64,000 nucleotides of DNA from Halieaceae bacterium (GTDB lineage Bacteria > Pseudomonadota > Gammaproteobacteria > Pseudomonadales > Halieaceae): positions 13,567 through 77,566 of the forward strand of contig JAYPVH010000008.1 in the NCBI GenBank assembly GCA_038134505.1. Direction: 5' to 3'. Below the pieces are notes generated by a model, which made no database searches, had not been told where the DNA came from, and was given only the letters and a program-made list of their open reading frames with translations. A program made the translations under genes and the position numbers. Each line of letters opens with the position of its first letter. Position 1 is the stretch's first letter. Shown here piece after piece: positions 1-13,598 of the stretch.

Positions 1-354
1 AGCCAATTACTGGCAGCTCCGCGGGCATTGCCAGATATTGATGGGTTACGCACGTTCATTGATCGGCAAGAAGATGACAGCGGTTCTTGGATCTTGCAGT
101 TCGGTGTCTCTGAATCGGGAAAAATCACTAATCTGGAACAACTAGCGCGACCTGAAGTCAAACAGGCAAGTGACTTCGATCGACGCATTCGGAGCTTGCG
201 GCGGGTCAAATTCCGCCCACGCTTTGAAGCGGGCCAACCTGTCGCGACCACGGGATTGCTGTGGTCTTTTGATGATGCCAGCTGGCACACTACCGACGAA
301 CCAGTGCAAGATAAGCAGTCCGCCGTTGTGGATCCTGCTGGGGAGGCTCAATGA
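1..354 (+). CDS. 3' end of a CDS entering from upstream; C-terminal ~85 aa loosely resemble a TonB C-terminal domain
   Basis: Frame 1 is open from nt 1 (SQLLAAPRALPDIDG...), so the listed 28..354 ORF is only a fragment. The segment GSWILQFGVSESGKITNLEQL...FDRRIRSLRRVKFRPRFEAGQPV follows the TonB_C layout (G-x-V-x-V-x-F-x-V-x3-G-x-V ... F-D ... W-x-F-x-P ... G-x-P-V) only loosely. The stop overlaps the next start (ATGA at 351-354). Confidence 0.4.
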   Translation, partial: SQLLAAPRALPDIDGLRTFIDRQEDDSGSWILQFGVSESGKITNLEQLARPEVKQASDFDRRIRSLRRVKFRPRFEAGQPVATTGLLWSFDDASWHTTDEPVQDKQSAVVDPAGEAQ

Positions 355-1580
355 ACCACATCATTGTTTCATCGCGTTTTGGCGCCGCTCTTATCACCTG
401 TCTTTGTTTGGTACTCAGCGGCTGCCCATCGTCTACAACGCAAACTAAACCGCCAACGCCCACCACGCCCAGCACTTCGTCAAGTAGCTCGTCCTCAAGC
501 AGCAGTTCATCTTCGAGTAACAGTTCGTCGAGCAGCAGTTCGTCCTCCAGTAGCGCTTCCTCTAGCGGCGGTAACAGTGGCGGTGCCGCGTCATCCAGCA
601 CCAATAGCGGTAGTCGCTCCTCCGGAAGTACGAGCGCATCTGCCGGTGGATCCCCCTCTGCCCCCTCCGGGTCAAGCAGCGGCACGAGTTCGACTGGCGG
701 CAGTACGAGTACCGGAGCTTCCCTCCCGACCATGGGCACCGGCGGTACCGCGGGTCCCTCGGGTAACGAGGCAGGCACCGAGGGTTCCTCGAGCGGGGGT
801 GATACGGGTTCCGGGAGTGAGGTGGGCGCATCCGCCGGCACTGACCCGGGCTTCGGCGGCGGCGGGGCGGCAGGCCTACCGAGCATGGTCGATGTGCTCC
901 CCACCTTCGATGAGCCGGTTGCCAGCAGCTCAACATCCGGCGGTACCGATTCAGAGGGCGGTGCTGAGGGCAGCGTTCCGGGAGAAGCGCCAAATAGCCA
1001 GACGGGTGGCAGTGGGTCAACAAGAGACCCTTCAACGGTAAGCGACAGCGGTACCGCGGATGCCGGCAACGGTTCACCGGGAACACGCGCTGATGGTGGA
1101 TTAACCGGCGATTGGGAAACTGACTACGGCGTCGATGGGCCTCTTACGGCGATTGAGCAAGTCGCTATCCTCGACGGTCAGCTACGTCGCAGTACCGACG
1201 AATTCGACGGCATGATTCGCGAGGAGCAAGCACGACAGCGTGAAGCAAGCCGCTCTCGCTCAACATCGGAAGCCGCGAGCGGAGCAGCCGGTAACTCGGG
1301 AGATCTTGAGACCTACGGTGGGCGAAATCCTTACGACAGCACGGGCGTCAGCGATGGCTCGATTGGCGGTGGCATGGGCGGCACCGTCGCTCGCGCACCC
1401 ACAGCACCCGACAATCCCGCGATCTACGAGGTCCCAGAGGATATTCCTATGGGTAACGATGATGACGTGGTCGCCCGTCAGCTACGAGAGGCGGCCATGC
1501 GCGAACCCGACCCGGCAGTGCGCGAGAAACTTTGGAATGAATACCGCAAATACAAGGGCTTGGAGGTCTCTGGAGAGTGA
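351..1580 (+). CDS. putative lipoprotein with a long Ser/Gly/Thr-rich disordered region and a charged C-terminal domain
   Basis: Signal peptide plus lipobox LVLSG-C25 (TGC 423-425). aa 41-72 are almost pure Ser, and the S/G/T-rich stretch runs to about aa 250. The last ~150 aa have normal composition (...DDDVVARQLREAAMREPDPAVREKLWNEYRKYKG). ATGA overlap upstream and GTGA overlap downstream. Confidence 0.7.
   Translation: MNHIIVSSRFGAALITCLCLVLSGCPSSTTQTKPPTPTTPSTSSSSSSSSSSSSSSNSSSSSSSSSSSASSSGGNSGGAASSSTNSGSRSSGSTSASAGGSPSAPSGSSSGTSSTGGSTSTGASLPTMGTGGTAGPSGNEAGTEGSSSGGDTGSGSEVGASAGTDPGFGGGGAAGLPSMVDVLPTFDEPVASSSTSGGTDSEGGAEGSVPGEAPNSQTGGSGSTRDPSTVSDSGTADAGNGSPGTRADGGLTGDWETDYGVDGPLTAIEQVAILDGQLRRSTDEFDGMIREEQARQREASRSRSTSEAASGAAGNSGDLETYGGRNPYDSTGVSDGSIGGGMGGTVARAPTAPDNPAIYEVPEDIPMGNDDDVVARQLREAAMREPDPAVREKLWNEYRKYKGLEVSGE
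471..566 (+). repeat. poly-serine coding tract (low complexity at protein level, non-repetitive at DNA level)
   Basis: 32 codons, 29 of them Ser (STSSSSSSSSSSSSSSNSSSSSSSSSSSASSS). All six Ser codons are used (AGC, AGT, TCG, TCA, TCC, TCT), read directly from nt 471-566. Confidence 0.95.
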
Positions 1581-2758
1581 AAAGATATCTCTCAGCCTTG
1601 AGCCTTGTGGCACTGATTCTGCTGCCGGGCTGTGTCACGCAGACCGTGCGCAGCACCTCCGTCGCAGCGCTTGAAACGCCACAAATGCCCATAGCAGAAG
1701 ACGAGTTACTCGATATCGGAGTCGCAATTTTCGACCCCAACCTAGAACAGGTCACAACGGACCAAGATGTACCGATTTTCGCGGAGGTCCGTCGGGCTGA
1801 GGCCACCTTCATGGCGGGACAACTCACGCAAGTACTGCAGGATCAGAACGCCTGGGGTGCCGTGCGGATCGTACCCGACGACCAGCAATTCACCGATCTA
1901 CTCGTGCGCGGCAAAATACTCAAAAGCGATGGCGAACAACTATCACTCGCCATACGCGTCACGGACGCGACCGGTCTTGAGTGGATCAATAAAACCTACT
2001 CGGGCACCACCAGTGTCTATGCCTACAACCAAACCGCTCGCGCCAACAACGACCCCTTTGTGGGCGTCTATCGAGACATCGCCAATGACCTGCTCAAGCG
2101 CTTTAACAACCGGTCCCGCAGCGAGCGGATTGCGATCCGTCGTATCGCTGAAATGCGTTTCGCGCGAGATTTTTCAGCCGATGCCTTCAGCCCCTATTTG
2201 AACCAGAACGACAAAGGCATTTACAGTTTGACGCGACTTCCTGCGGAAAATGACCCCATGCTCGAGCGTGTTCGGACTATTCGCGGTCGCAACTACACTT
2301 TTGTCGATACCTTGCAGGGGCACTACAGTGGTTTCTCCGAAGAGATTACGGGCCCCTATGATGAGTGGCGCAAAGCAAGCTATGAGGAGACGGTCGCATT
2401 GCGCGAGCTCCGCGCAGAAGCACAACGCGACATGATTCTTGGTGGTTTGGCGGTGATTGCAGGTGTGGCAGCGCAAGGCTCTGGTAGTGAATATACCCAA
2501 GCAGCGGGGGCTGTGGGTGTCATCGCCGGCGGTTATTTACTGAAAAAACGTGCTGCGTCGGAAATCCACGCGCTGGCACTTGAGGAAATCGGGCAGTCGC
2601 TGGAAGCGGAGGTGACACCGCGCGTGATCGAACTTGAGGACCGGACAGTGCGACTGTCAGGTTCTGTTGAAGACCAATACCAACAATGGCGCGAACTGCT
2701 GGCGGATATTTATGCCACGGAAATGCAGGCGCTCGAAGAACTATCCCAAGCTGAGTGA
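1577..2758 (+). CDS. putative lipoprotein with a C-terminal glycine-zipper-like hydrophobic segment
   Basis: Lipobox LLPG-C19 after a hydrophobic signal peptide. GTG start with GGAG 2 nt upstream and a GTGA overlap with the upstream stop. The Gly/Ala-rich segment MILGGLAVIAGVAAQGSGSEYTQAAGAVGVIAGGYLL lies near the C-terminus. The N-terminal alpha/beta-looking domain (IGVAIFDPN...LLVRGKILKSDGEQLSLAIRVTDATG) is reminiscent of CsgG/LpoB/TolB-N-type lipoprotein domains, but only weakly. Confidence 0.7.
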   Translation: MKRYLSALSLVALILLPGCVTQTVRSTSVAALETPQMPIAEDELLDIGVAIFDPNLEQVTTDQDVPIFAEVRRAEATFMAGQLTQVLQDQNAWGAVRIVPDDQQFTDLLVRGKILKSDGEQLSLAIRVTDATGLEWINKTYSGTTSVYAYNQTARANNDPFVGVYRDIANDLLKRFNNRSRSERIAIRRIAEMRFARDFSADAFSPYLNQNDKGIYSLTRLPAENDPMLERVRTIRGRNYTFVDTLQGHYSGFSEEITGPYDEWRKASYEETVALRELRAEAQRDMILGGLAVIAGVAAQGSGSEYTQAAGAVGVIAGGYLLKKRAASEIHALALEEIGQSLEAEVTPRVIELEDRTVRLSGSVEDQYQQWRELLADIYATEMQALEELSQAE

Positions 2759-2765
2759 TGAGGCG

Positions 2766-4304
2766 ATGCACGACCCCGAACCCCAACGGCTCGAGCCCAC
2801 ACCGTTCGCCCCATCGCAGGCTGATTCACAGGCCTTAGCCAAACCTGCCTCACGAGAGGCTCGAACCACTGCCGTGCCAATTTGGCTTGCTCTTGGATTT
2901 GCAGGGATCGCGTTATTGTTTGTCATCTTTGTGCTACCAGAACTCGTTACACCCGCCCCCAATCAGTCATCTGTCGAGCCAGTCACTGAGACTGACGCAA
3001 CGACACGACCGCTCGCCACGGCGCAATCGCAAGCGACTGACTTGGGAGTAGCGCAAACACCGTTTGCCCAAGCGCAGGAACAGGAGCGACGTCAGGCAGC
3101 ACAACAAGTGCTGGAAGCGCTGCTGGATCAACAACGCGTGCTCAAAAATCACAATGTTGAGCGGTGGGCCGAGCCGGCCTATGAGGCCGCGCTGGGCACA
3201 GCCGCAGCAGGCGACACCGCGTACCGAGATCGTGACTTCGAAGGCGCCGCAGTCGCCTACCAGAGCGCGCTAGACGCGCTCTCCGCTCTGTCAGAATCTC
3301 TGCCTGAGCGCGTTGCCACTGCGATTGATGCGCTCGATCGCGATATTGAGAACCTGAGTCTCGCTGAGGCTCAGCGCAGCCTCGATTGGCTGGGTGCCCT
3401 CAATGCGGCAGATGTCGATTTGCTGTCGTGGCAAGCGCGGGTCGATGCACTGCCCCTGGTGATCGCGGCGCTTGATGAGGGCCAGGAAGCAGTCACACGT
3501 CGAGAGTTTGACAGCGCGGTCGCCGCGGCGTCACGCGCCATCGGCGCCGACCCCGAACACCAACGTGCGCAAGTGTTGCGGCAAAATTGGCAAGCGCTCG
3601 CTCTCGATGCCGCATTCTCTCAAGCCATGAGCGAGGGCTATGCAGCGCTCGATGCTGAGCAATTCGATCGCGCTGCGCGACAATTTGAAGCCGCACAGCG
3701 CTTACGGCCCAATGCGCCAGAGACCACTGCAGCCCTCGTTGAACTGAGCACGTCGCGAACCGCAGCAGAGCTGCGCGAGTTGACTGCCGCTGGTCGCGAT
3801 AAGATCGCCGAAGAAGATTGGGCTGGCGCGCTCGAGGCATTTAATGCGGCGCTCGCCATCGATGACACCTTAGTTTTCGCGCAGATCGGCGTCGAACAAG
3901 CGACGCCGAGGCTGCAACTCGACCTCGCGATCGAGGGAATAATCGCGCAACCTGAGCGTCTGGTCGACCCGAGAATACTGAGTGATGCGCGCAGCACACT
4001 GCGCTCAGCGCGAGCCATCGAGCAAGCAGGCCCTAGACTCTCAAGCCAAATCGTGGCTTTAGAGAAGACGTTGGCCTATGCGAGTACGCCTATCACCGTC
4101 ACCCTCACCTCAGATGGACTCACCGATATTACGGTACTCAGAGCACAGCGGCTGGGACTGTTCGCCACGCAGACCATCAGCCTTCGACCTGGTGAGTACA
4201 CCGCCGTCGGCTTCCGCAATGGTTTTCGCGACGTTCGTATCACTTTTTTGGTATCCGCGGACGGGCCGAATAACGTCGACATACGGTGTGAGGAAGCGCT
4301 ATGA
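2766..4304 (+). CDS. single-pass membrane protein with a TPR-like helical-repeat region and a small C-terminal beta domain
   Basis: ATG at 2766, 8 nt after the upstream stop; the earlier in-frame part of ORF 2634..4304 overlaps the preceding gene. TM segment VPIWLALGFAGIALLFVIFVLP. Then a long Ala/Leu/Glu/Arg-rich repeat region with TPR-like A-x3-Y-x2-AL / F-x2-A-x3-F-x2-A patterns. The C-terminus ITVTLTSDG...ISLRPGEYTAVGFRNGFRDVRITFLV is PEGA/beta-sandwich-like. The stop overlaps the next start (ATGA at 4301). Confidence 0.65.
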   Translation: MHDPEPQRLEPTPFAPSQADSQALAKPASREARTTAVPIWLALGFAGIALLFVIFVLPELVTPAPNQSSVEPVTETDATTRPLATAQSQATDLGVAQTPFAQAQEQERRQAAQQVLEALLDQQRVLKNHNVERWAEPAYEAALGTAAAGDTAYRDRDFEGAAVAYQSALDALSALSESLPERVATAIDALDRDIENLSLAEAQRSLDWLGALNAADVDLLSWQARVDALPLVIAALDEGQEAVTRREFDSAVAAASRAIGADPEHQRAQVLRQNWQALALDAAFSQAMSEGYAALDAEQFDRAARQFEAAQRLRPNAPETTAALVELSTSRTAAELRELTAAGRDKIAEEDWAGALEAFNAALAIDDTLVFAQIGVEQATPRLQLDLAIEGIIAQPERLVDPRILSDARSTLRSARAIEQAGPRLSSQIVALEKTLAYASTPITVTLTSDGLTDITVLRAQRLGLFATQTISLRPGEYTAVGFRNGFRDVRITFLVSADGPNNVDIRCEEAL

Positions 4305-6418
4305 CCGAGCGCGAGCAGCCGAGCCTAGGCGGAAAAAATCCAAATTCAACGCCCGATCGCCCTCCCCGGGAGAGCGAACGACTGATACCCCAAACCTTCC
4401 AACCTCTAGGCCAGAATACCGATGAGTCCCGTCGCGGCTTGCCACTTCGCACGATTGGCCTTGCGCTCGCAGGACTATTAGCACTGTCGGCTTTAGCTTT
4501 CTTATTCGCCGCTCGGTCGCTCGAAGTTGTCATTCATACAGAGAGCGAAGCGACACTGGAGATCACGGGTGTCACAATACCGCTGGGCGACCGCTATCTT
4601 ATTCTCTCTGGAACCCATGACGTTCATGTCACCGCGGAAGGCTACGAGCCGTATCACGGGACCATCGCGGTCACTGATGAACAAACCCAACGGGTAGATA
4701 TCTTCCCTGCGATCCTGCCCGGATGGGTTTCGATAGATACGCAACCCACCGGAGCCCAAGTCTGGTTGGATGACACATTGCTTGGGGCCGCACCCATTGC
4801 GCGTGTATCCATGACTGCCGGCTCCCACAGCTTACGGATCTCCGCACCGCGGTACCAAGCTCTCGAGCGCGACCTTCAGGTCACGGGCCGCGGCGTAGTA
4901 CAGCAGATAGCCTTGGCACTTGAGCCCGATTGGGCGTTAGTGCATTTTCAAACAGATCCGACAGCTGTGACGATCTCGGTCGATGGCAACCCTGAAGTCT
5001 ATGATAACGGGGCAGTCGAAGTACTCTCGGGAGAACACCTAATAGACATCGCGGCACCGGGCTATCAGGCGCATCAGGTGCAGGTCACGATCGAAGCGGG
5101 CGTCGATCAAGATTTGGGGGTCATCACATTGCGCCCGGCCGACGGGTTACTTGAACTCGATTCAGAACCCAGCATGGCGAATGTGTCGGTGGACGGTCGA
5201 TTTCAGGGCAGGACTCCCCTTACGCTCTCACTCACGCCGGGACTCACGCATCGGATTCAAATCTCGAAAGCGGGTTATCAGCGTCGCACTGAGCGCGTAT
5301 CGCTCGAGCGCGGCACTCAGGACAGTCGCACCATCAGCTTACAGCCAGATCTCGGCGCGATCCGCTTCGTGCTCTCCCCCGCTGATGCCGAACTATTGAT
5401 CGACGGGCAGTCTGTCGGTCAAGGCTCACAAACCCTCTCACTGCCGGCACACGAACATCGCGTCGAGGTTCGCAAAGCGGGCTACGCCAGCCAGCGCGAA
5501 AAAGTCACACCGCGGCCGGGTCTGGAGCAGCAACTGGCTATCAGCCTGCTCTCTGAGGCCGAGGCGCGCAAGGCGGCAATGAAGCCCGAAGTGATCTCCT
5601 CCCTAGGCCAAACATTGCGATTAATCGACCCTCTGGGAGAACCCCGCAATGCTTTTTCAATGGGTACGTCACGCCGCGAACCGGGGCGTCGATCGAATGA
5701 AGTCCTGCACCCAGTGACCTTAGAGCGCGCTTTTTACCTCGCCACCCACGAAACCACCAACGCCCAGTTCAGACAGTTTTTGGCCAGTCACGATAGCGGT
5801 CAGATCGAGGGTAAAAGTCTCAATCGTGAGCATCAGCCGGTCGTGCGCGTGAGCTGGCAGCAGGCGGCCAGCTTCTGCAATTGGCTGTCGGCGCGAGAAG
5901 GGCTGCCGCCGTTCTACCGCGAGTCACAGGGGATCATTACAGGCTATAACACCTCTAGCACCGGCTATCGACTGCCCACCGAAGCAGAGTGGGCCTTCGC
6001 TGCACGAATACAGGGGGATAACACCTTGAGATTCGCTTGGGGTGATGCGTGGCCTCCGACGACGCCCGTGACCAATGTGGCGGACAACAGCTCCGCTTAT
6101 GTCACGGGTCGAATCTTGAATGGTTACGAAGATGGCTACATTGTCAGCGCGCCGGTCGGCAGTTTTCCCGCCAACCCCAGAGGTCTTTTTGATATCGGCG
6201 GCAACGTAGCGGAGTGGGTTCACGACGTGTACCAAATCCCCTCGCCTAATAGCGATGTTGAGGTCGATCCCTTAGGGGCGCAGAATGGCGATAACTACAC
6301 GGTTCGCGGTGGAAGCTGGTCTTTGAGTAGACTGTCTGAGTTACGACTCACCTACCGCGATTACGGTCAATCGGGTCGCGATGATTTAGGATTTAGAATT
6401 GCACGATATGCACAATAA
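4301..6418 (+). CDS. membrane-anchored protein with five PEGA-like repeats and a C-terminal FGE-sulfatase (SUMF1/EgtB/PvdO-type) fold that lacks the FGE catalytic Cys pair
   Basis: TM at aa 51-71 (IGLALAGLLALSALAFLFAAR). Five ~68-aa repeats (aa 74-417, nt 4520-5551), each ending in a (A/K)(E/P/A)GY motif (TAEGYEP, SAPRYQA, AAPGYQA, SKAGYQR, RKAGYAS). FGE-fold hallmarks: SWQQAASFCNWLS, GYRLPTEAEWAFAAR, GNVAEWVHD, VRGGSW. After RGGSW the sequence is SLSRLSELRLTYRDYG, with no Cys. Confidence 0.8.
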   Translation: MTEREQPSLGGKNPNSTPDRPPRESERLIPQTFQPLGQNTDESRRGLPLRTIGLALAGLLALSALAFLFAARSLEVVIHTESEATLEITGVTIPLGDRYLILSGTHDVHVTAEGYEPYHGTIAVTDEQTQRVDIFPAILPGWVSIDTQPTGAQVWLDDTLLGAAPIARVSMTAGSHSLRISAPRYQALERDLQVTGRGVVQQIALALEPDWALVHFQTDPTAVTISVDGNPEVYDNGAVEVLSGEHLIDIAAPGYQAHQVQVTIEAGVDQDLGVITLRPADGLLELDSEPSMANVSVDGRFQGRTPLTLSLTPGLTHRIQISKAGYQRRTERVSLERGTQDSRTISLQPDLGAIRFVLSPADAELLIDGQSVGQGSQTLSLPAHEHRVEVRKAGYASQREKVTPRPGLEQQLAISLLSEAEARKAAMKPEVISSLGQTLRLIDPLGEPRNAFSMGTSRREPGRRSNEVLHPVTLERAFYLATHETTNAQFRQFLASHDSGQIEGKSLNREHQPVVRVSWQQAASFCNWLSAREGLPPFYRESQGIITGYNTSSTGYRLPTEAEWAFAARIQGDNTLRFAWGDAWPPTTPVTNVADNSSAYVTGRILNGYEDGYIVSAPVGSFPANPRGLFDIGGNVAEWVHDVYQIPSPNSDVEVDPLGAQNGDNYTVRGGSWSLSRLSELRLTYRDYGQSGRDDLGFRIARYAQ

Positions 6419-6683
6419 CCTCCGCTTCAGCACTGTGGTGCTCAGCCTCTTGCTGAGTCACCTTAGCGCCGCGCAGACCACTGACGCGGAGCCGCTGCAA
6501 GTGCCTGAAGCAGCTTCGGCACAATCTAGCGAGACCCCGCCGGCGGCGGCGACAGATCCGCTGGCTAATGAAGCTGAAATGCCAGCATCAGTCGCATCGA
6601 CGCCCTCCAACTCGCCCTTTGACTACGAACCCACAGAGGCCATCCGCAAGGATAATTCTGTCTCTTTCCCCGTCGACATTTGA
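6399..6683 (+). CDS. small secreted acidic, Pro/Ala/Ser-rich protein (hypothetical)
   Basis: The signal-peptide-like N-terminus LRFSTVVLSLLLSHLSAAQT is followed by a low-complexity acidic region and the C-terminal motif DNSVSFPVDI. Start is ATG 6399 or ATG 6408; both overlap the 3' end of the upstream gene. A small ORF, so coding status is less certain. Confidence 0.5.
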   Translation: MHDMHNNLRFSTVVLSLLLSHLSAAQTTDAEPLQVPEAASAQSSETPPAAATDPLANEAEMPASVASTPSNSPFDYEPTEAIRKDNSVSFPVDI

Positions 6684-6695
6684 GAGGATGCCGGT

Positions 6696-7499
6696 GTGAA
6701 TTTTCGCCTACCTTCTGAATTTATGTACCAAGTCTTCGCACTACTGATCGCCATCATTGTGGTGCACGGCGCCTACGTCGGTGTCATTCGCCCAAGCGCC
6801 GATGCACAACTGGCCGAAGAGGCGGCGCTACAGGCGGCCGGTGAGGAATTTACGCCAAAGCGGTCGCTGGCGGTGGTTGTGCGAGATTTTGAACAAGAAG
6901 CCTGCTTTGTATTAATGCTGTGGGCCTTCGCGATTATGGGACTCAAAGCAGCACGAACCCGAACCGAAGCAAGAATGCTCGAACGATCACTCATCGGCAT
7001 TGCCGAGGGCACCAGTGTATTACCGCAGGATGCGCGAGAGTACTCGCGAGCGCTCGAGGCACTGGACCCAGAAGAGCAAGATCTTCTCTTGCCGCGCGCC
7101 CTGCTCAATGGCCTACAGCGCTTTGCGACAACGGGTAGCATTCCCGCGGTATCAGAGGCGGTACGAGAACAATGTGACATTGAAGCTGATCGACTGGATT
7201 CTGAGTTGTCTATGGTGCGCTATATCTCATGGGCCATTCCGTCCATTGGTTTTATCGGCACCGTACGCGGTATCGGCGATGCACTAGGCCAGGCGTATAA
7301 AGCGGTTGAAGGCGATATCTCGGGCGTGACCGTGAGCCTAGGTGTCGCTTTCAACAGCACGTTCGTCGCACTGGTATTGTCTATTTTCATTATGTTCGCT
7401 TTACACCAGTTGCAATTGTCTCAGGAGCGGTTGGTACTCAATACCCAGCGTTATGTTGATCGCACGTTACTCCGTCATTTGGCAGTGCCGAGATCATGA
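6696..7499 (+). CDS. MotA/TolQ/ExbB-family proton-channel protein
   Basis: GTG start with GAGAGG 8 nt upstream. Four hydrophobic segments (about aa 11-31, 68-86, 174-194, 212-238) with an ~85-aa loop between segments 2 and 3. The C-terminal signature ISWAIPSIGFIGTVRGIGDALGQ...SLGVAFNSTFVALVLSIFIMF matches the MotA_ExbB core (P-x-x-G-(L/F)-x-G-T-V-x-G ... A-(L/F)-x-(T/S)-T). Confidence 0.85.
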   Translation: MNFRLPSEFMYQVFALLIAIIVVHGAYVGVIRPSADAQLAEEAALQAAGEEFTPKRSLAVVVRDFEQEACFVLMLWAFAIMGLKAARTRTEARMLERSLIGIAEGTSVLPQDAREYSRALEALDPEEQDLLLPRALLNGLQRFATTGSIPAVSEAVREQCDIEADRLDSELSMVRYISWAIPSIGFIGTVRGIGDALGQAYKAVEGDISGVTVSLGVAFNSTFVALVLSIFIMFALHQLQLSQERLVLNTQRYVDRTLLRHLAVPRS

Positions 7500-8743
7500 C
7501 GGTTGTTCTCGACATTCTCGATCGTGAAATCACCTGTTGGGTAGGGGATGATGCCGTCGTTTCTCCGGGTTTCGCCCACTTTGCACAGAATCAGTATCAC
7601 TTTGGAGCCCAAGCACAACAGATGGCGCGCATCGCACCGAGAGAGGTGAATACGCGCTACTGGACTCGGCTGAGCACTGACCCATTGGTGCCGGCTATCG
7701 GCCCCGCGCGCCACACTGCGGATTTGGCTCACAGTCATTTGCAAACTCTTTTGCAGCAAGCGGGGCAACCCAACGACGCGCTCATTAGCGTCTCGGGCCA
7801 AATGACACCCAGTCAACTGTCGTTACTCATGGGTATCTTGCAGAGTCTGGGGGTAACGACCTCAGCTGTGGTGCACCGCAGTCTGCTAGTGGCCGCGGGC
7901 CACGACGCGCAATGGCACTGCGAAGTCCAGCTACATCAAACGCTGGTCACCCCACTCAGCCGGGAAGGCGGAAGGCTGACCGCCGGGAGCAGCATTGAAT
8001 TGGTGCACTTGGGCAGCCTCTCATTACTCGATCGCCTCGGACACCGCGTGGCCGACGCGTTTATCACACAGACTCGCTTTGATCCGCATAAGCGCGCGAC
8101 CACCGAACAGGCGCTGTTCGACGCACTGCCCGACATGCTATCGGCCCTGCGCCAACACAGCGAAACGCAGGTCACGATTGAAGGCTACAGCGCGCGGATC
8201 ACACGCGACAGCCTGATCGATATTGGCACGCAGGCAGCTAGCGAACTGTCAGCTGTCGTCGGACCCAACGGTTCGGTCATGCTCGATGCCGCCTTGGCCG
8301 ACTTTCCCGGATTCGCGATCCCTTGCGCCACGTTCGTCACGCCCACTGAGCAGATCCCGACAATTTTTCTGCGCGAGGCGCAGAGTCTGACGGCCGACCC
8401 CTCGGAGCTCGTGTTTCATCGTTCGATCAGCGACGCAGTCGATGCGACAACCCATGACAAGGCAGACCCCGATACGACCTTCCTCTCGGAGTCCAGTGAC
8501 AACGCTGCTCAGCCGACTCACCTGCTCGAGGGAGATACAGCCTTCGCGCTGGGTCGCGTTATGACACTCGACAATGGCACAGTCCTGCTCGCTGCAGCCG
8601 ATGGCTTGCGCCTCGGCCAAGGGCACCCGCGCGCCCTCACTGTCAATGGCGAAGCAGCGATCGCAGGTCAGGCACTTCATATCGGCGATGAGCTGGCGGA
8701 TTCGGATGGCGTTATCGGCCGCTTGATCGCTGTACGCGGGTGA
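7496..8743 (+). CDS. soluble hypothetical protein; the N-terminal half weakly resembles a degenerate Hsp70/actin-fold nucleotide-binding domain
   Basis: ATGA overlap with the MotA-like stop. No TM segment or signal peptide. VVLDILDREITCWVG... aligns positionally with the Hsp70 IGIDLGTTNSCVAV phosphate-1 loop, but the motif is degenerate. ALISVSGQMTPSQLSLLMGILQSLGVTTSAVVHRSLLVAAG parallels [41 protein letters not shown]. The C-terminal ~70 aa look like a small beta domain. Confidence 0.6.
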   Translation: MTVVLDILDREITCWVGDDAVVSPGFAHFAQNQYHFGAQAQQMARIAPREVNTRYWTRLSTDPLVPAIGPARHTADLAHSHLQTLLQQAGQPNDALISVSGQMTPSQLSLLMGILQSLGVTTSAVVHRSLLVAAGHDAQWHCEVQLHQTLVTPLSREGGRLTAGSSIELVHLGSLSLLDRLGHRVADAFITQTRFDPHKRATTEQALFDALPDMLSALRQHSETQVTIEGYSARITRDSLIDIGTQAASELSAVVGPNGSVMLDAALADFPGFAIPCATFVTPTEQIPTIFLREAQSLTADPSELVFHRSISDAVDATTHDKADPDTTFLSESSDNAAQPTHLLEGDTAFALGRVMTLDNGTVLLAAADGLRLGQGHPRALTVNGEAAIAGQALHIGDELADSDGVIGRLIAVRG

Positions 8744-8746
8744 ATT

Positions 8747-9838
8747 GTGGCGCGTCGCAAGCGACAAGCATCGACGTTTAACTTAAGCTTCCTCGACATT
8801 ATGTCTTGCGGATTCGGCGCGGTCGTTCTGGTGTTTCTCATCATCGATCACGCGATAGAAGTGGAATATAAGACCCTCAACGCCGACGTGCTATCAGAAA
8901 TCGCACTTCTCGATGAGGACATTCGTGAAGGCGAAGCCGGGCTCGTTCGTTTGCGCAACGCGCTCACAGATGCCGATGCCGATATCGTCGAAGCACAGGG
9001 ACTGGCTTCGCGTGTTACCGAAGAACTCAGTCGCTTTGAAGCCCTCATCGCAGCGATGGAAGAATCAGGAGTGACCACCGATGCCGATATCGAAGCCATC
9101 AAGGCGGAGATCAACCGACTCGAACAAGAGGTCAAAGAGCTGCGCGAATCGGCTGAAGCCGATGGAGGGCGCAGCGCCCGTGATTTTAGTGGCGATGGGC
9201 AGAGGCAATATCTTACGGGATTGAATCTCGGCGGCTCCCGCATACTGATCCTGCTCGATGCCTCAGCGAGTATGCTGTCTGATCAGTTAGTCAATATTAT
9301 TCGGCTGCGGAATATGGACGAGGCCTTACAACTGTCCGCAGAAAAGTGGGTCCGCGCACGCTCGACAGTGGACTGGCTCATGGCGCAGCTGCCGATAAAC
9401 TCACGATTCCAACTGGTGGTCTTCAACACGCAAGCGCGATTTGTGCTGCCTGAGACGGCAAACATTTGGATCGATGTCGCAGATAGCGACAAACTCGAAA
9501 AGCTCTCGGAAGGTCTCGGTCGCCTGCGGCCCGAGGGTGGCACCAGTTTGCACAACGCCTTCAGTCAGGCCAATGCGTTCAATTCTCGACCTGATAACAT
9601 TTTTTTGATTACCGACGGCCTGCCCACACAGGGCACCAAGCCGCCGCGAGGCCCCACTATCAGCGGGCCCGATCGGTTGCGATTATTTCGCGAGGCCGCC
9701 AAGCTCTTACCCAAGGGGGTCCCTGTCAATATTATCTTGGCGCCGATGGAGGGCGATCCATTAGCGGCCTCGGAATTTTGGCGGCTGGCACAGGATTCTG
9801 GGGGCAGTTTTATGAGCCCCGCCAGAGATTGGCCCTGA
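8747..9838 (+). CDS. ExbD/TolR-like TM anchor + coiled coil + von Willebrand factor A (vWA) domain protein
   Basis: GTG start 4 nt after the upstream stop. The N-terminus RRKRQASTFNLSFLDIMSCGFGAVVLVFLII resembles the ExbD/TolR TM with Asp (D17, nt 8795-8797). aa ~36-140 are heptad-like and E/A/L/R-rich. The vWA MIDAS is ILILLD171ASAS (nt 9257-9271), followed by GGTS and FLITDGLPT. Confidence 0.85.
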   Translation: MARRKRQASTFNLSFLDIMSCGFGAVVLVFLIIDHAIEVEYKTLNADVLSEIALLDEDIREGEAGLVRLRNALTDADADIVEAQGLASRVTEELSRFEALIAAMEESGVTTDADIEAIKAEINRLEQEVKELRESAEADGGRSARDFSGDGQRQYLTGLNLGGSRILILLDASASMLSDQLVNIIRLRNMDEALQLSAEKWVRARSTVDWLMAQLPINSRFQLVVFNTQARFVLPETANIWIDVADSDKLEKLSEGLGRLRPEGGTSLHNAFSQANAFNSRPDNIFLITDGLPTQGTKPPRGPTISGPDRLRLFREAAKLLPKGVPVNIILAPMEGDPLAASEFWRLAQDSGGSFMSPARDWP

Positions 9839-9843
9839 GGTGA

Positions 9844-10845
9844 ATGATGCGAAGTCGACGCGCGCCCGCTGAATTTTCGATCTCCTTTTTGGATGTGATC
9901 TGCTGTGGCTTCGGTGCAGTCATTCTCTTGCTCATGATCACCAAAACGGTACAACCGCAAATTCTTGAGCAATCCAGCATCGTGGCTGAAGGTCGTGTGG
10001 CTGAGTTAACTGAACAATTGTTTGAAATTCGCGGAGAGACGCGGATTTTGAACCGCGATCTCACAGTGAAGCGCGAACAAATTTCCAGTTATGAGGAGCG
10101 CATTGCGGTGCTACAGGGCGCACTCGCCAGTGCGCGAGCACGACACGATACGCTGAATACATCGCGCAACGCGAACAGCATTATTCTCGATCAACTGGCG
10201 ATCGCGAGGCAGCGCCTGACTGATGAAGAGCGACGTCTGCTGGGTGACCGCTACGAAAGCAAAAACAACCTGATCGGTGGGATACCTGTCGACAGCGAAT
10301 ACATTATTTTTATCATCGACACATCGGGGTCAATGTTCTCCTACGCCTGGCCTCGCATGCTCAAAGAGATGGAGGCGACGCTCAACATCTACCCAGAAGT
10401 CAAAGGGATTCAGGTCTTAAACGACATGGGTAACTACCTGTTTAGCCGCTACCGCGGGCAATGGATTCCCGATACCCCAGCGCGACGTGACCTCATCCTG
10501 CGCAGTTTGGCCAACTGGAATGTATTCTCAAACTCGTCCCCTGTGGAGGGTCTGACCGCGGCGATCCGATCCTTCTATGATCCTGGGAAAAAGATTTCAA
10601 TCTATGTTTTCGGCGACGAATTTACAGGTGAGTCGATTGAGAGCGTGGTCCGCACCGTCGATCAACTCAACAGTGAGACGACCTCAGGACAGCGCCGAGT
10701 CAGGATCCATGCTGTGGGTTTCCCAGTCCAGTTCATTCGACCACCCGAGCTACAAACAACCGGCATTCGGTTTGCTACACTGATGCGTGAGTTGGCCTAC
10801 AAAAATGGTGGCACATTTGTCGGACTCAATGATTTTCGGCCCTAG
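9844..10845 (+). CDS. ExbD/TolR-like TM anchor + coiled coil + vWA domain protein (paralog of 8747..9838)
   Basis: GAGGTGA lies immediately upstream of the ATG. The N-terminus RSRRAPAEFSISFLDVICCGFGAVILLLMIT shares the pattern of the preceding gene (D17, nt 9892-9894). Coiled-coil-like aa ~40-135. The vWA has IIFIID159TSGS (nt 10318-10332), but the downstream MIDAS Thr/Asp positions look degenerate. Confidence 0.85.
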   Translation: MMRSRRAPAEFSISFLDVICCGFGAVILLLMITKTVQPQILEQSSIVAEGRVAELTEQLFEIRGETRILNRDLTVKREQISSYEERIAVLQGALASARARHDTLNTSRNANSIILDQLAIARQRLTDEERRLLGDRYESKNNLIGGIPVDSEYIIFIIDTSGSMFSYAWPRMLKEMEATLNIYPEVKGIQVLNDMGNYLFSRYRGQWIPDTPARRDLILRSLANWNVFSNSSPVEGLTAAIRSFYDPGKKISIYVFGDEFTGESIESVVRTVDQLNSETTSGQRRVRIHAVGFPVQFIRPPELQTTGIRFATLMRELAYKNGGTFVGLNDFRP

Positions 10846-10861
10846 ACCTTACGATTTGAAA

Positions 10862-11524
10862 ATGATCGCGCTCGTCGCGGTGATGGCATTGTCTGGGTGT
10901 AGCAACAAGCAGGTCATCGTCACCGGCAATTTCCCTACGCCGACCATGACCAAAGTTCAAACGACCCTCGGAGTGGTGTATTCACCTGAATTCGCCAACC
11001 ACGAATTTTTCGACGAAGCCAAAGGGCGCAACGAATCCTCTTGGCTGGTCCAGACAGGTACCGCCCAAGTCGAGTTTTGGAATACTTTCCTGCCGGGAAT
11101 GTTCGAGCGTGTCGTGGTGATTGGTTCAGATGAAGACTGGCACACTCACCACGAATCCCTAGACGCCGTATTGATACCACAGGTGGCCGAACTGCAATAC
11201 GCCATCCCCTTGCACACCAATGTGAAAGTCTATGAAATTTGGTTGCGCTATCAATTTAGACTGGTCACGCCTGAGGCAATTCACGCGCACGAGGCGGAAA
11301 GCCTCATGTTTAATCCAGCCGAGGATATTGCCAGCTTTACACTAACGGCCTACGGGAAAACCCCCTCAGCATTCATGCAATCTGATACCGACGCTGTAAA
11401 TTATGCAGCCATCGTTGCGCTGCGCGATGCGGGCGCCAACTTTGTCACCCAATTTGACCGTATTCCCGCAGTCGCGACATGGCTCCTAGCGCTGGGAGAG
11501 GATACGCCGGGAGAGGCGCCATGA
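10862..11524 (+). CDS. putative lipoprotein (hypothetical)
   Basis: ATG 10862 lies 17 nt after the upstream stop and gives MIALVAVMALSG-C with a lipobox. The longer ORF start at 10787 would overlap the vWA gene. The stop overlaps the next start (ATGA at 11521). Confidence 0.65.
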   Translation: MIALVAVMALSGCSNKQVIVTGNFPTPTMTKVQTTLGVVYSPEFANHEFFDEAKGRNESSWLVQTGTAQVEFWNTFLPGMFERVVVIGSDEDWHTHHESLDAVLIPQVAELQYAIPLHTNVKVYEIWLRYQFRLVTPEAIHAHEAESLMFNPAEDIASFTLTAYGKTPSAFMQSDTDAVNYAAIVALRDAGANFVTQFDRIPAVATWLLALGEDTPGEAP

Positions 11525-12186
11525 TAGCCAATCCGCGACTCCCACTGTCTCTGGTGCTTGTGCTCTCGCTACAGGCCTGCGTCAGCGCGACGGTCAATGA
11601 AATGACCTACAACGAGCCTGAAGCGGGTATCGGTGATGCCGCCCTTGTCATCTTGGGGCGCCGTCATGCACCTGACTACGACACCGAGTTCGATTTCATC
11701 GATTGTGTTGGCAAAGTGATTCATAGTGGCGATCCAAGCATCACGGTCATCAACGAGCGGCAATTTATCGATCGCCTCTACCCCTGGTTCGAACCACGAA
11801 TTGCCCCTATGCAACCGTCTGATATCGATCGATTACGCGCACAAGAGCCAATTCAAGAGCAGCTCAGCCGGTTTGGTATTGAATACATGATCTGGATAGA
11901 CGGCACCACGATCGAAACCAACAGCACAGGCTCAATGACCTGTGGTGTTGGGCCCGGTGGCGCGGGTTGTTTTGGCTTTGGTACTTGGGGGAATGAAGCC
12001 AACTATGAAGCGACCATCTGGAATCTGAACGAGCAAGCAGAGGTGGGAAAGGTCAGTGCGGAAACCAGCGGCCAGAGTTATATGCCCGCGGTGATTGTAC
12101 CCATCCCGATTATCGCGCCGGTTCAAGACACCGCCTGTGAGAGTCTGGGTCTGCAGCTGCTGCAATATTTCTCCTCGGAGCATTGA
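11521..12186 (+). CDS. putative lipoprotein (hypothetical)
   Basis: ATG 11521 gives MIANPRLPLSLVLVLSLQA-C with a lipobox. Translationally coupled to the upstream gene. Contains the Gly-rich loop CGVGPGGAGCFGFGTWG. Confidence 0.65.
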   Translation: MIANPRLPLSLVLVLSLQACVSATVNEMTYNEPEAGIGDAALVILGRRHAPDYDTEFDFIDCVGKVIHSGDPSITVINERQFIDRLYPWFEPRIAPMQPSDIDRLRAQEPIQEQLSRFGIEYMIWIDGTTIETNSTGSMTCGVGPGGAGCFGFGTWGNEANYEATIWNLNEQAEVGKVSAETSGQSYMPAVIVPIPIIAPVQDTACESLGLQLLQYFSSEH

Positions 12187-12188
12187 TC

Positions 12189-13598
12189 ATGCGAGCCATT
12201 GTTTTGGGTCTATCAATATCGATGATCTTAGGCTGTGCCAGTAGCGGATCTACAGTCACAGTCGGCGGTAGACCGGTGTCTATGCCCTCGGACACCGCTG
12301 AGGAGCATGAAAAACTGATTGAGAATGTGGGTCTCTATGACGATCCCGAACTCGCCGCCTATGTCGAGCGTATAGGACAACAATTGGTCGCCAACTCGCG
12401 TATGCCCAAGCAAACATTCACCTTCACACTACTCGATTCACCCGACATTAACGCCTTCGCGTTACCCGGTGGCTTCATCTACGTGAACCGAGGCTTACTG
12501 GCCTACCTCGACAGTGAGGCAGAACTCGCGGCTGTCTTGGCCCATGAAATTGGGCACATCACTGAGCGACATCACAGTCGGCGTAAGACGCAGAGCGTGA
12601 CCTCGCAGGTTGCCGCTGTGACCGCATATATCCTCACGGGATCGGGTCAGATCTACGATGCGGCCTCGATGTATGGGGCAGAGCTGATCTCAGGTTTCGG
12701 GCGTGACATGGAGCTTGAGGCGGATGCCGCTGGCGCTGAGACGATGCATCGCACAGGCTATGAGGCCGATGCGATGCTCTCTGTCATTGGCGTCCTGAAG
12801 GACCAGGAACAGTATCGACGCGTGCAAGCGCGCGCGTCAGGAAAACCCTCTGGTACGTATCATGGGCTGTACTCTAGCCATCCGCGAAATGACCTACGCT
12901 TGCAGACCGTCATCCGGACGGCGAGTGCTCTCGATATCGACAACCAACCCGAGAATCCTGAGCAACCCGGCGTCTTTCAAACTCAGGTCGAGGGCCTCGT
13001 ATTTGGTGCCAGTGCCGAAGCGCAGAGTGAACCCGATCGTTTCTATCACAACAACCTCGATTTCACATTTGCGCACCCGCCTGGTTGGTCGGTGGTACAG
13101 CAAAGCCGCGCCATCGTCGCCACCAATGCCGCGGGCGACGCGACACTGACGATTACCTTGGACCGAATCGAACCCGATAGCACCGCCTCACAAGCCCTAG
13201 AGGACGGTGCTGGGGGAACATTGAGTGACACCGAGGCCTTCGAGCAGTTTGGTTTGAACGGCGCCACCGCGCGCTCCTCGAGTGCAGACGCAACCCTGCG
13301 CCTCGCTGTGATCGATCACAGCTACCGATTTTTGTTTGAGGGCACGTCCAAAGACCTTGACGCTACAGACGCCGATTTTTTAGAGATGATCCGAAGCTTC
13401 AGACCGTTAGTCGCGCGTGAGAAGGTCACGGGTGTCAGTCGCACGCTGCACTATATACAAGTACCTAGGGGGGCAACGCTTGAGTCCCTATCGAGTAGCG
13501 CGCGCGTCCCTGATGCCGAGAACCAGCTACGCCTGATCAATGGCTACTATCCGGTCGGCGAGCCGCGTACCGGCGACTGGGTCAAAACCATTCGCTAA
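12189..13598 (+). CDS. M48-family zinc metalloprotease, lipoprotein
   Basis: Lipobox MILG-C. The HExxH zinc motif sits in LAHEIGHITERHH, and the DINAFALPGGFIYVNRGLL context is typical of M48 (HtpX/BepA-like) peptidases. Start is ATG 12189 (or TTG 12183), 3 nt after the upstream stop. Confidence 0.8.
   Translation: MRAIVLGLSISMILGCASSGSTVTVGGRPVSMPSDTAEEHEKLIENVGLYDDPELAAYVERIGQQLVANSRMPKQTFTFTLLDSPDINAFALPGGFIYVNRGLLAYLDSEAELAAVLAHEIGHITERHHSRRKTQSVTSQVAAVTAYILTGSGQIYDAASMYGAELISGFGRDMELEADAAGAETMHRTGYEADAMLSVIGVLKDQEQYRRVQARASGKPSGTYHGLYSSHPRNDLRLQTVIRTASALDIDNQPENPEQPGVFQTQVEGLVFGASAEAQSEPDRFYHNNLDFTFAHPPGWSVVQQSRAIVATNAAGDATLTITLDRIEPDSTASQALEDGAGGTLSDTEAFEQFGLNGATARSSSADATLRLAVIDHSYRFLFEGTSKDLDATDADFLEMIRSFRPLVAREKVTGVSRTLHYIQVPRGATLESLSSSARVPDAENQLRLINGYYPVGEPRTGDWVKTIR

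Follow-up and report, generated by a model that had tools for sequence, protein, structure and literature searches.

This analysis concerns two adjacent genes, vWA1 and vWA2, in a 64-kb stretch of DNA from a Halieaceae bacterium (GCA_038134505.1, contig JAYPVH010000008.1, positions 13,567 to 77,566; this whole stretch is called the window below), and the membrane-anchored proteins that they encode, each of which is predicted to end in a domain of the von Willebrand factor A type (vWA). Both genes lie on the forward strand. vWA1 (8747-9838) opens with a GTG codon and encodes 363 residues with the N-terminus MARRKRQASTFNLSFLDIMSCGFGAVVLVFLII; vWA2 (9844-10845) encodes 333 residues with the N-terminus MMRSRRAPAEFSISFLDVICCGFGAVILLLMIT. 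The database homologs of vWA2 begin at the second ATG (9847), which makes a 332-residue protein in which the transmembrane (TM) Asp is D16; we use the longer numbering. The two open reading frames (ORFs) and their N-termini agree with those quoted in an earlier description of the window made from its letters alone (the sequence-only reading). Each paralog consists of a basic N-terminal tail, one TM helix with an invariant Asp, about 100 residues of heptads, and a vWA domain. In vWA1, the tail covers residues 1-10, the TM helix residues ~11-33, the heptad stalk residues ~36-140 (8852-9166), and the vWA domain residues ~163-363; in vWA2, the stalk covers residues ~34-140. A hydropathy scan finds one hydrophobic segment per protein (residues 11-41 in vWA1 and 9-37 in vWA2). 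The two TM segments share the motif S-F-L-D-x-x-x-C-G-F-G-A, and codon 17 specifies Asp in both, as had been claimed (GAC at 8795-8797 in vWA1, GAT at 9892-9894 in vWA2).

That the two proteins are full-length paralogs is borne out by BLASTP (E=3e-10, 22% identity) and by comparison of the family profiles (99.9% probability, E=2.6e-33, residues 1-363). vWA1 matches VWA_2 (6.7e-9) and VWA_3 (3.6e-9) in Pfam, each exceeding its cut-off; for vWA2 and its listed database relatives, Pfam gives no match. The families are large and abundant in marine metagenomes. vWA1 has >4774 relatives in a 90%-clustered database, and its representatives at 50% clustering number 1404 (E≤1e-3) or 309 (E≤1e-30), almost all of them 330-370 residues long; the vWA2 family exceeds 8000 database clusters. 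The names of cluster members, which give no more than hints of taxonomy, point to Gammaproteobacteria and 'Deltaproteobacteria' metagenome-assembled genomes (MAGs). We note that the public gene calls for vWA1 of this same organism (P0001, and L083 8955-9992, where vWA2 is identical) encode 345 residues from Met19, the GTG start having been missed (window 8747-8800); the TM Asp and half of the TM helix are therefore missing from those entries.

To compare loci, we scanned metagenomes with the motif D[IVC][MI]xCGFGA, which gave 577 relatives and 80 loci that were kept; two more, from Biformimicrobium ophioploci and an Acidobacteriota MAG, came from a scan of a genome collection with a single protein, making 82 in total. 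In each of the two proteins, conservation is highest in the TM segment. Among 100 full-length representatives of vWA1 from the 50% clusters, F15, D17, G22, G24, and L28 are 100% conserved and C21 is 95% conserved, and in 37 vWA2 sequences from the metagenome loci F15-L16-D17 and C21-G22-F23-G24-A25 are invariant. The vWA1 representatives that lack the search motif are either truncated gene calls from Met19 or carry SFLD..CAFG, and among those listed there is no intact vWA1 N-terminus without the Asp. The conservation of the TM Asp across homologs, on which the sequence-only reading had staked its case, thus extends to every intact N-terminus listed. Another of its concerns, that the N-terminus might be a generic signal anchor, is excluded by the fact that 13 of 23 TM residues are identical between the paralogs, compared to 22% overall. 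Across the loci, vWA2 is more conserved than vWA1 (50-88% against 45-69% identity). At one locus, that of the Acidobacteriota MAG (L002 578-2677, forward strand), vWA1 and vWA2 form one ORF of 699 residues from which the conserved vWA1 C-terminus has been lost; this is probably a frameshift or an assembly error and not a true fusion.

The first protein had been credited with a complete-looking metal ion-dependent adhesion site (MIDAS), and this holds: D171-A-S-A-S (D171-x-S173-x-S175, 9257-9271), T266 (9542-9544), and D290 (9614-9616) are all present and are 86-100% conserved in the 100 representatives (S173 and D290 100%, D171 95% with Glu in the remainder, S175 95%, T266 86%). The site of the second protein had been called degenerate, and here we disagree. 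The vWA-like domain of vWA2 contains D159-T-S-G-S163 (10318-10332), S231 (10534-10536), and D258 (10615-10617); a profile alignment pairs S231 with T266 of vWA1 and D258 with D290, and D159-T-S-G-S163, S229, S231, and G257-D258 are invariant in the 37 homologs. On this alignment, vWA2 carries a complete and invariant MIDAS-type set (D-x-S-x-S / Ser / Asp) in which Ser replaces Thr. Both vWA domains therefore possess the D-x-S-x-S, Thr/Ser, and Asp that define a MIDAS, and both are predicted to bind metal. The distance from the TM Asp to the MIDAS varies within a narrow range, with modes of 154 residues in vWA1 and 142 in vWA2.

Between the TM helix and the vWA domain, the coiled coil proposed in the sequence-only reading is supported by the family alignments, in which the hydrophobic periodicity is exactly 3.5 residues in both stalks. 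The normalised power at 3.5 residues is 22 for vWA1 (residues 36-140) and 11 for vWA2 (residues 34-140), compared to 1±1 in shuffled sequences, none of 2000 of which reaches either value. The heptad phase is constant along the stalk, with ≤0.2 residue of drift, and, measured from the TM Asp, the two paralogs share it (74° and 82°). This fits a parallel, in-register dimer that continues from paired TM helices; it is consistent with such a dimer rather than decisive, since shared ancestry without insertions or deletions would give the same outcome. In the AlphaFold 2 (AF2) model of vWA2, whose predicted local distance difference test (pLDDT) score of 47 leaves only the secondary structure usable, a TM helix (14-32) and a helix spanning 37-140 are followed by alternating β/α elements. 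Profile searches of the PDB gave generic coiled-coil matches in the stalk region and very weak vWA matches; the best, 8qox_B, is a chain of a Sulfolobus S-layer entry and hence reflects a generic helical stalk. As for sequence, the vWA1 stalk is poorly conserved, and the vWA2 stalk contains at residues 55-80 a near-invariant LFEIRGET..LNR.L motif with an invariant Gly64, which suggests a specific contact or a hinge. The topology assumed earlier also agrees with the charge distribution: in both paralogs, the mean number of Lys plus Arg is 3.6-3.7 in the N-terminal tail and 0.9-1.3 in the 15 residues past the TM helix, and by the positive-inside rule the N-terminus is predicted to be cytoplasmic and the C-terminus, with the vWA domain, periplasmic.

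The linked channel gene and its neighbour

Upstream of the pair, a gene at 6696-7499 (forward strand) encodes a MotA/TolQ/ExbB-like channel subunit of 267 residues with four hydrophobic segments. It matches Pfam MotA_ExbB (PF01618; E=3e-14, with 53 bits where the cut-off is 22.9). At 28 bits, with an NCBIfam cut-off of 221, it does not rank as an equivalog of TolQ or ExbB. Its nearest relative of solved structure is E. coli TolQ (8odt), and in the alignment T189 (7260-7262) and T222 (7359-7361) fall on TolQ T145 and T178; each is ≥98% conserved in 51 MotA-like homologs. The sequence-only reading had placed this gene adjacent to the pair, which is not the case: a 415-residue protein is encoded between them, and the MotA-like gene is 1.2 kb upstream. 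The co-occurrence that it anticipated is nonetheless found, as the MotA-like gene lies within the gene cluster in all 53 loci, just upstream in 52 of them and relocated within the cluster in the other. In that exception (L036 481-1350, reverse strand), the gene is inverted at the upstream cluster edge and its product is only 38% identical. In all 70 loci that extend far enough downstream, vWA2 is the next gene after vWA1, and tblastn found no ExbD, TolR, or MotB homolog in the 64-kb window or in the 82 loci.

The intervening gene (7496-8743, forward strand) overlaps the stop codon of the MotA-like gene at its start and ends 3 nucleotides before vWA1; in 56 of 57 loci, it is the gene immediately preceding vWA1. 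Its product has neither a Pfam match nor a sequence match in the PDB. An AF2 model built with 27 homologs has a pLDDT of 87, and the top Foldseek matches, which cover residues 1-~310, are the nucleotide-binding domains (NBDs) of Hsp70 proteins (Ssz1 4gni, DnaK, and others; E ~1e-13, TM-score 0.56-0.6). The C-terminal ~90 residues score as a Pfam FHA domain in homologs (L081 7.7e-12, L002 5e-8), a match that the window copy does not give. No TM segment is convincing: the single marginal candidate from a hydropathy scan (residues 108-126) scores 1.67 where the threshold is 1.6, and it falls within the Hsp70-like fold. We take the protein to be cytoplasmic with an actin-fold N-terminal region. 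It may, speculatively, regulate or anchor a motor. We note that its phosphate-binding motif looks degenerate (LDILDREI, compared to GIDLGTTNS in Hsp70).

A candidate axle pair

The sequence-only reading had likened the N-termini of vWA1 and vWA2 to those of ExbD and TolR. The likeness in position stands: both have a basic tail and an Asp ~7 residues into the helix, the same depth as that of ExbD D25 and TolR D23, ~7 residues from the cytoplasmic end. The likeness in sequence does not, as no homology was detected and six N-terminal fragments gave no ExbD or MotB_plug match in Pfam at E≤10. Its further observation that neither full-length protein has an ExbD/TolR or OmpA-like domain is confirmed with Pfam and NCBIfam; PF02472, MotB_plug, and OmpA are all unmatched by vWA1 and vWA2 in Pfam, and the periplasmic part consists instead of the coiled coil and the vWA domain. 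With no sequence homology found, we conclude that vWA1 and vWA2 are not members of the ExbD, TolR, or MotB families, and suggest that they may work like them. With these proteins and PomB, they share a single pass with the N-terminus inside, the basic tail, the Asp near the cytoplasmic end of the TM helix, and the proposed role of dimeric partner to a MotA/ExbB/TolQ-family pentamer that has Thr at the pore positions of its A subunits. Unlike ExbD, TolR, and MotB, they have the CGFGA motif, occur as a heteropair, and carry a long coiled coil and a vWA domain in place of the ExbD/TolR periplasmic domain, the MotB plug, or an OmpA-like domain.

The architecture, which had seemed undescribed at first, has a published precedent. 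Pairs of TPH-vWA proteins encoded next to tolQ-like genes were reported in Mol Biol Evol 2025;42:msaf138 (PMC12204202). There (Fig. 4c-d; the seed is from Idiomarina loihiensis), they are described as having a TolR/ExbD-like trans-pore helix (TPH) with a conserved Asp, as occurring "predominantly in heterologous pairs" in Proteobacteria and Verrucomicrobia, and as linked tightly to a tolQ-like gene with no tolR, exbD, or motB nearby; AlphaFold 3 models place the Asp pair within the conserved Thr ring, and the legend of supplementary Fig. S1.7 refers to disordered regions near the vWA domain. The genes in the window correspond to this account in every feature described: the TM Asp, the C-terminal vWA domain, the heteropair (70/70), the linkage to a tolQ/motA-like gene in a neighbourhood free of tolR, exbD, and motB, the A-subunit Thr residues, and the occurrence in Proteobacteria. 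As the architecture and the hypothesis are both already in the literature, the locus is a further example of this recently predicted kind. In the sections consulted of PMC12204202, there is no word of the heptad stalk, of a MIDAS that is complete in both paralogs, or of the Hsp70-like/FHA gene and the wider cluster, and a search of its main text gave neither PEGA nor FGE-sulfatase.

Judging from conservation, synteny, and analogy, we consider it likely that the MotA/TolQ-like protein forms the A-subunit pentamer of an ion-driven 5:2 motor and that vWA1 and vWA2 serve as the two B-type (axle) subunits of that motor. In such a motor, each paralog would insert with its N-terminus in and its C-terminus out, and the two TM helices would pair inside the pentamer, each presenting one Asp to the ring of conserved Thr residues, in the manner of MotB, ExbD, and TolR. 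As the two Asp residues are protonated and deprotonated, they would drive rotation of the pentamer relative to the dimer. Having neither a peptidoglycan-binding nor an ExbD-type domain, the dimer would continue as a parallel, in-register, heterodimeric coiled coil of ~100 residues, which at 0.15 nm per residue would be ~15 nm long and could hold two MIDAS-bearing vWA heads in the outer periplasm, where they might extend to the outer membrane or no further than the peptidoglycan zone. The heads would bind a partner through a metal-coordinated acidic residue, candidates being the co-conserved lipoproteins, the PEGA/FGE-sulfatase protein, and the TPR proteins, and the motor would pass torque or tension derived from the proton-motive force (PMF) to a process in the outer envelope. 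In this scheme, the insertion into the pentamer, the heterodimer, the 5:1:1 stoichiometry, the coupling to ions, the geometry of the stalk, and the ligand are inferred.

The axle assignment is supported by the invariant TM Asp, the positive-inside topology, the strict pairing and synteny, and the lack of a canonical B subunit nearby, as well as by the Pfam MotA_ExbB match and conserved pore Thr residues of the MotA-like protein, the heptad stalks, the narrow Asp-to-MIDAS spacing, the complete MIDAS sets, and the independent, published AlphaFold 3 model of a system that appears to be of the same kind (PMC12204202). Several observations weigh against it. The anchor has no sequence similarity to ExbD, TolR, or MotB that Pfam (E≤10) or a local profile could detect; the profile, made from 265 N-termini, scores below zero against approximate sequences of E. 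coli ExbD, TolR, and MotB. The match of the MotA-like protein to the solved TolQ is weak (E=0.03). The search for another B subunit covered the window and the 82 loci, and the rest of the genome could still encode one. Inheritance from the gene duplication could by itself account for the equal heptad phase, and the AF2 monomer of vWA2, made from a mixed vWA2 and vWA1 alignment, is unreliable. Finally, the published TPH-vWA design is a computational prediction (PMC12204202).

The alternative that survives best, which we regard as unlikely, is that the TM helices of vWA1 and vWA2 stay outside the motor, the two being periplasmic vWA proteins that are anchored in the membrane and serve as scaffolds or in adhesion. 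The MotA-like protein would then use another ExbD/TolR-type partner or none, and the Asp and the CGFGA motif would serve helix packing or some other interaction, which would suit an anchor without homology to ExbD, TolR, and MotB. However, it is costly to maintain an invariant acidic residue within a TM helix, and such residues seldom persist unless they have a function; this one sits at the same depth as ExbD D25 and TolR D23. The strict pairing suits a dimeric axle, and the 82 loci yielded no B subunit. It is true that vWA proteins anchored by a TM helix and docked onto the side of a motor are also proposed in PMC12204202; the SHLS/His motif of such side-binding transducers is absent from the sequence here.

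We think it less likely again that both proteins are axles but that each forms a homodimer, giving two kinds of motor on the same pentamer. Canonical MotB, ExbD, and TolR are homodimers, which speaks for the proposal. It sits uneasily with the presence of both genes together in 70 of 70 loci, with the equal phase and similar length of the stalks, with the heterologous pairs noted in PMC12204202, and with the higher conservation of vWA2, which suggests distinct, non-redundant roles in one assembly.

The actin-fold protein encoded directly upstream in 56 of 57 loci invites a comparison with an alignment subcomplex of the PilN/PilO or GspL/M kind, in which the Hsp70-like/FHA protein would bind the N-terminal tails as PilM binds PilN and the MotA-like protein would be an accessory. 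PilN and PilO would be matched by bitopic paralogs with coiled coils, and the tail motif FNLSFLD loosely resembles the INLLP motif of PilN. We find this the least probable of the three, because the modelled fold of the 415-residue protein matches Hsp70 NBDs and not PilM or FtsA, PilN and PilO have neither a TM Asp nor a vWA domain, and it would be left unexplained why a conserved MotA-like gene has no B subunit beside it; nor is it exclusive, as an Hsp70-like protein could equally bind the tails of a genuine axle. A MoxR-vWA chaperone pair and a defence system (for example, Zorya) are rejected since no cluster protein has a MoxR, ExbD, MotB, or defence match in Pfam, NCBIfam, or PADLOC.

The surrounding gene cluster

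The axle pair proposed here stands in a cluster whose single gene order is conserved across the 82 loci, down to 45% vWA1 identity (tblastn of the window proteins; the conservation of the first gene was seen in a separate comparison). The order begins with a TPR/TonB_C-like protein, a Ser-rich lipoprotein, a 393-residue lipoprotein, a TM-anchored TPR protein, a TM protein with four PEGA domains and an FGE-sulfatase domain, and a small protein found at only some loci; it continues with the MotA-like protein, the 415-residue protein, vWA1, vWA2, two lipoproteins, and an M48 lipoprotein. In the window it covers 1-13598 on the forward strand (other loci L001 and L003-L082). A literature search returned no paper describing such a 13-gene cluster, and an eLife 2020 paper on conflict systems, considered as a possible description, shares domain names only.

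Two known kinds of machine offer functional analogies. In the focal-adhesion machinery of Myxococcus gliding, AglR works with AglQ/AglS and the Glt proteins, and the machinery also employs TPR proteins, TonB_C-type domains, outer-membrane lipoproteins, and the vWA adhesin CglB (PMC9946355, PMC11761067). The locus resembles AglR-AglQ/AglS in pairing one TolQ-like A subunit with two distinct B-type subunits, which is an analogy of function and not a membership. It differs in that each B subunit carries its vWA domain in the same polypeptide and the cluster has no Glt-type outer-membrane barrels. The host family is not known to glide. In GldLM/PorLM, of type IX secretion and gliding, a 5:2 motor has a dimeric subunit whose long periplasmic arm extends to an outer-membrane complex with a protein of FGE-sulfatase fold. 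Here, the corresponding candidate is the bitopic PEGA/FGE-sulfatase protein (4301-6418, forward strand; 705 residues with an N-terminal TM helix, four PEGA domains, and a C-terminal FGE-sulfatase domain), whose gene is present in 35 of the 39 loci extending that far. Its best NCBIfam match is GldK/PorK, at 101 bits against a cut-off of 350, and the similarity is therefore at the level of the domain only. It is TM-anchored with PEGA repeats, whereas the FGE protein on the GldK/PorK side is a lipoprotein, and GldM, unlike the vWA pair, has neither a TM Asp nor a vWA domain.

Our broader proposal is more tentative and, in our estimate, somewhat short of an even chance: that a 13-gene trans-envelope machine, driven by the PMF and common in marine Gammaproteobacteria, has the pair and the MotA-like protein as its engine. 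The Hsp70-like/FHA protein would gate or anchor it, and the axle would transmit rotation or tension to the PEGA/FGE (PorK-like) protein, the TPR/TonB_C-like proteins, the lipoproteins, and the M48 protease. If so, the flagellar, Ton/Tol, and gliding/type IX secretion classes of 5:2 motor system would be joined by a fourth functional class. If the axle assignment is correct, the axle itself would bear metal-dependent adhesion heads on a rigid ~15 nm stalk, and force would reach the outer envelope directly and not through TonB/TolA or peptidoglycan binding. Among the conserved neighbours there would then be candidates for what the motor binds, what regulates it, and what it drives. Beyond the published kind of pair, the interest lies in this larger conserved set of envelope genes, for which the literature search returned no description.

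The remaining members are all encoded on the forward strand. Downstream of vWA2 lie two conserved lipoproteins, one at 10829-11524 (~231 residues, lipobox ALSGC by eye) and one at 11521-12186 (~221 residues, with four invariant Cys beyond the lipobox Cys), the latter belonging to a family in which 29 members have no Pfam match. The last conserved position of the cluster is held by a lipoprotein M48 metallopeptidase (12183-13598; Pfam Peptidase_M48, E=5e-36), found in 27 of the 35 loci extending that far. Upstream of the MotA-like gene is the small, secreted-looking protein present at only some loci (6408-6683, ~91 residues). Ahead of the PEGA/FGE-sulfatase gene is that of the TM-anchored TPR-like protein, at 2766-4304 by the database gene call (512 residues; the ORF opens at 2634), preceded by the 393-residue lipoprotein (1577-2758, lipobox LLPGC by eye), from an uncharacterised family in which 26 members have no Pfam match. 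The window opens with the 3' end of an upstream gene (1-354), which encodes the last 117 residues of a protein whose homologs contain TPR repeats and finish with (K/R)FRPRF..G.PV, an end that resembles TonB_C below the threshold (E 0.0013-0.036 in four of seven sequences scanned). The Ser-rich lipoprotein that follows it (351-1580, lipobox VLSGC by eye) has a strongly conserved C-terminal motif, DDD(V/I)(V/F)ARQ(L/I)REAA…WxEYRxY, and contains a long run of Ser, after which comes low-complexity sequence rich in Gly, Ser, and Thr.

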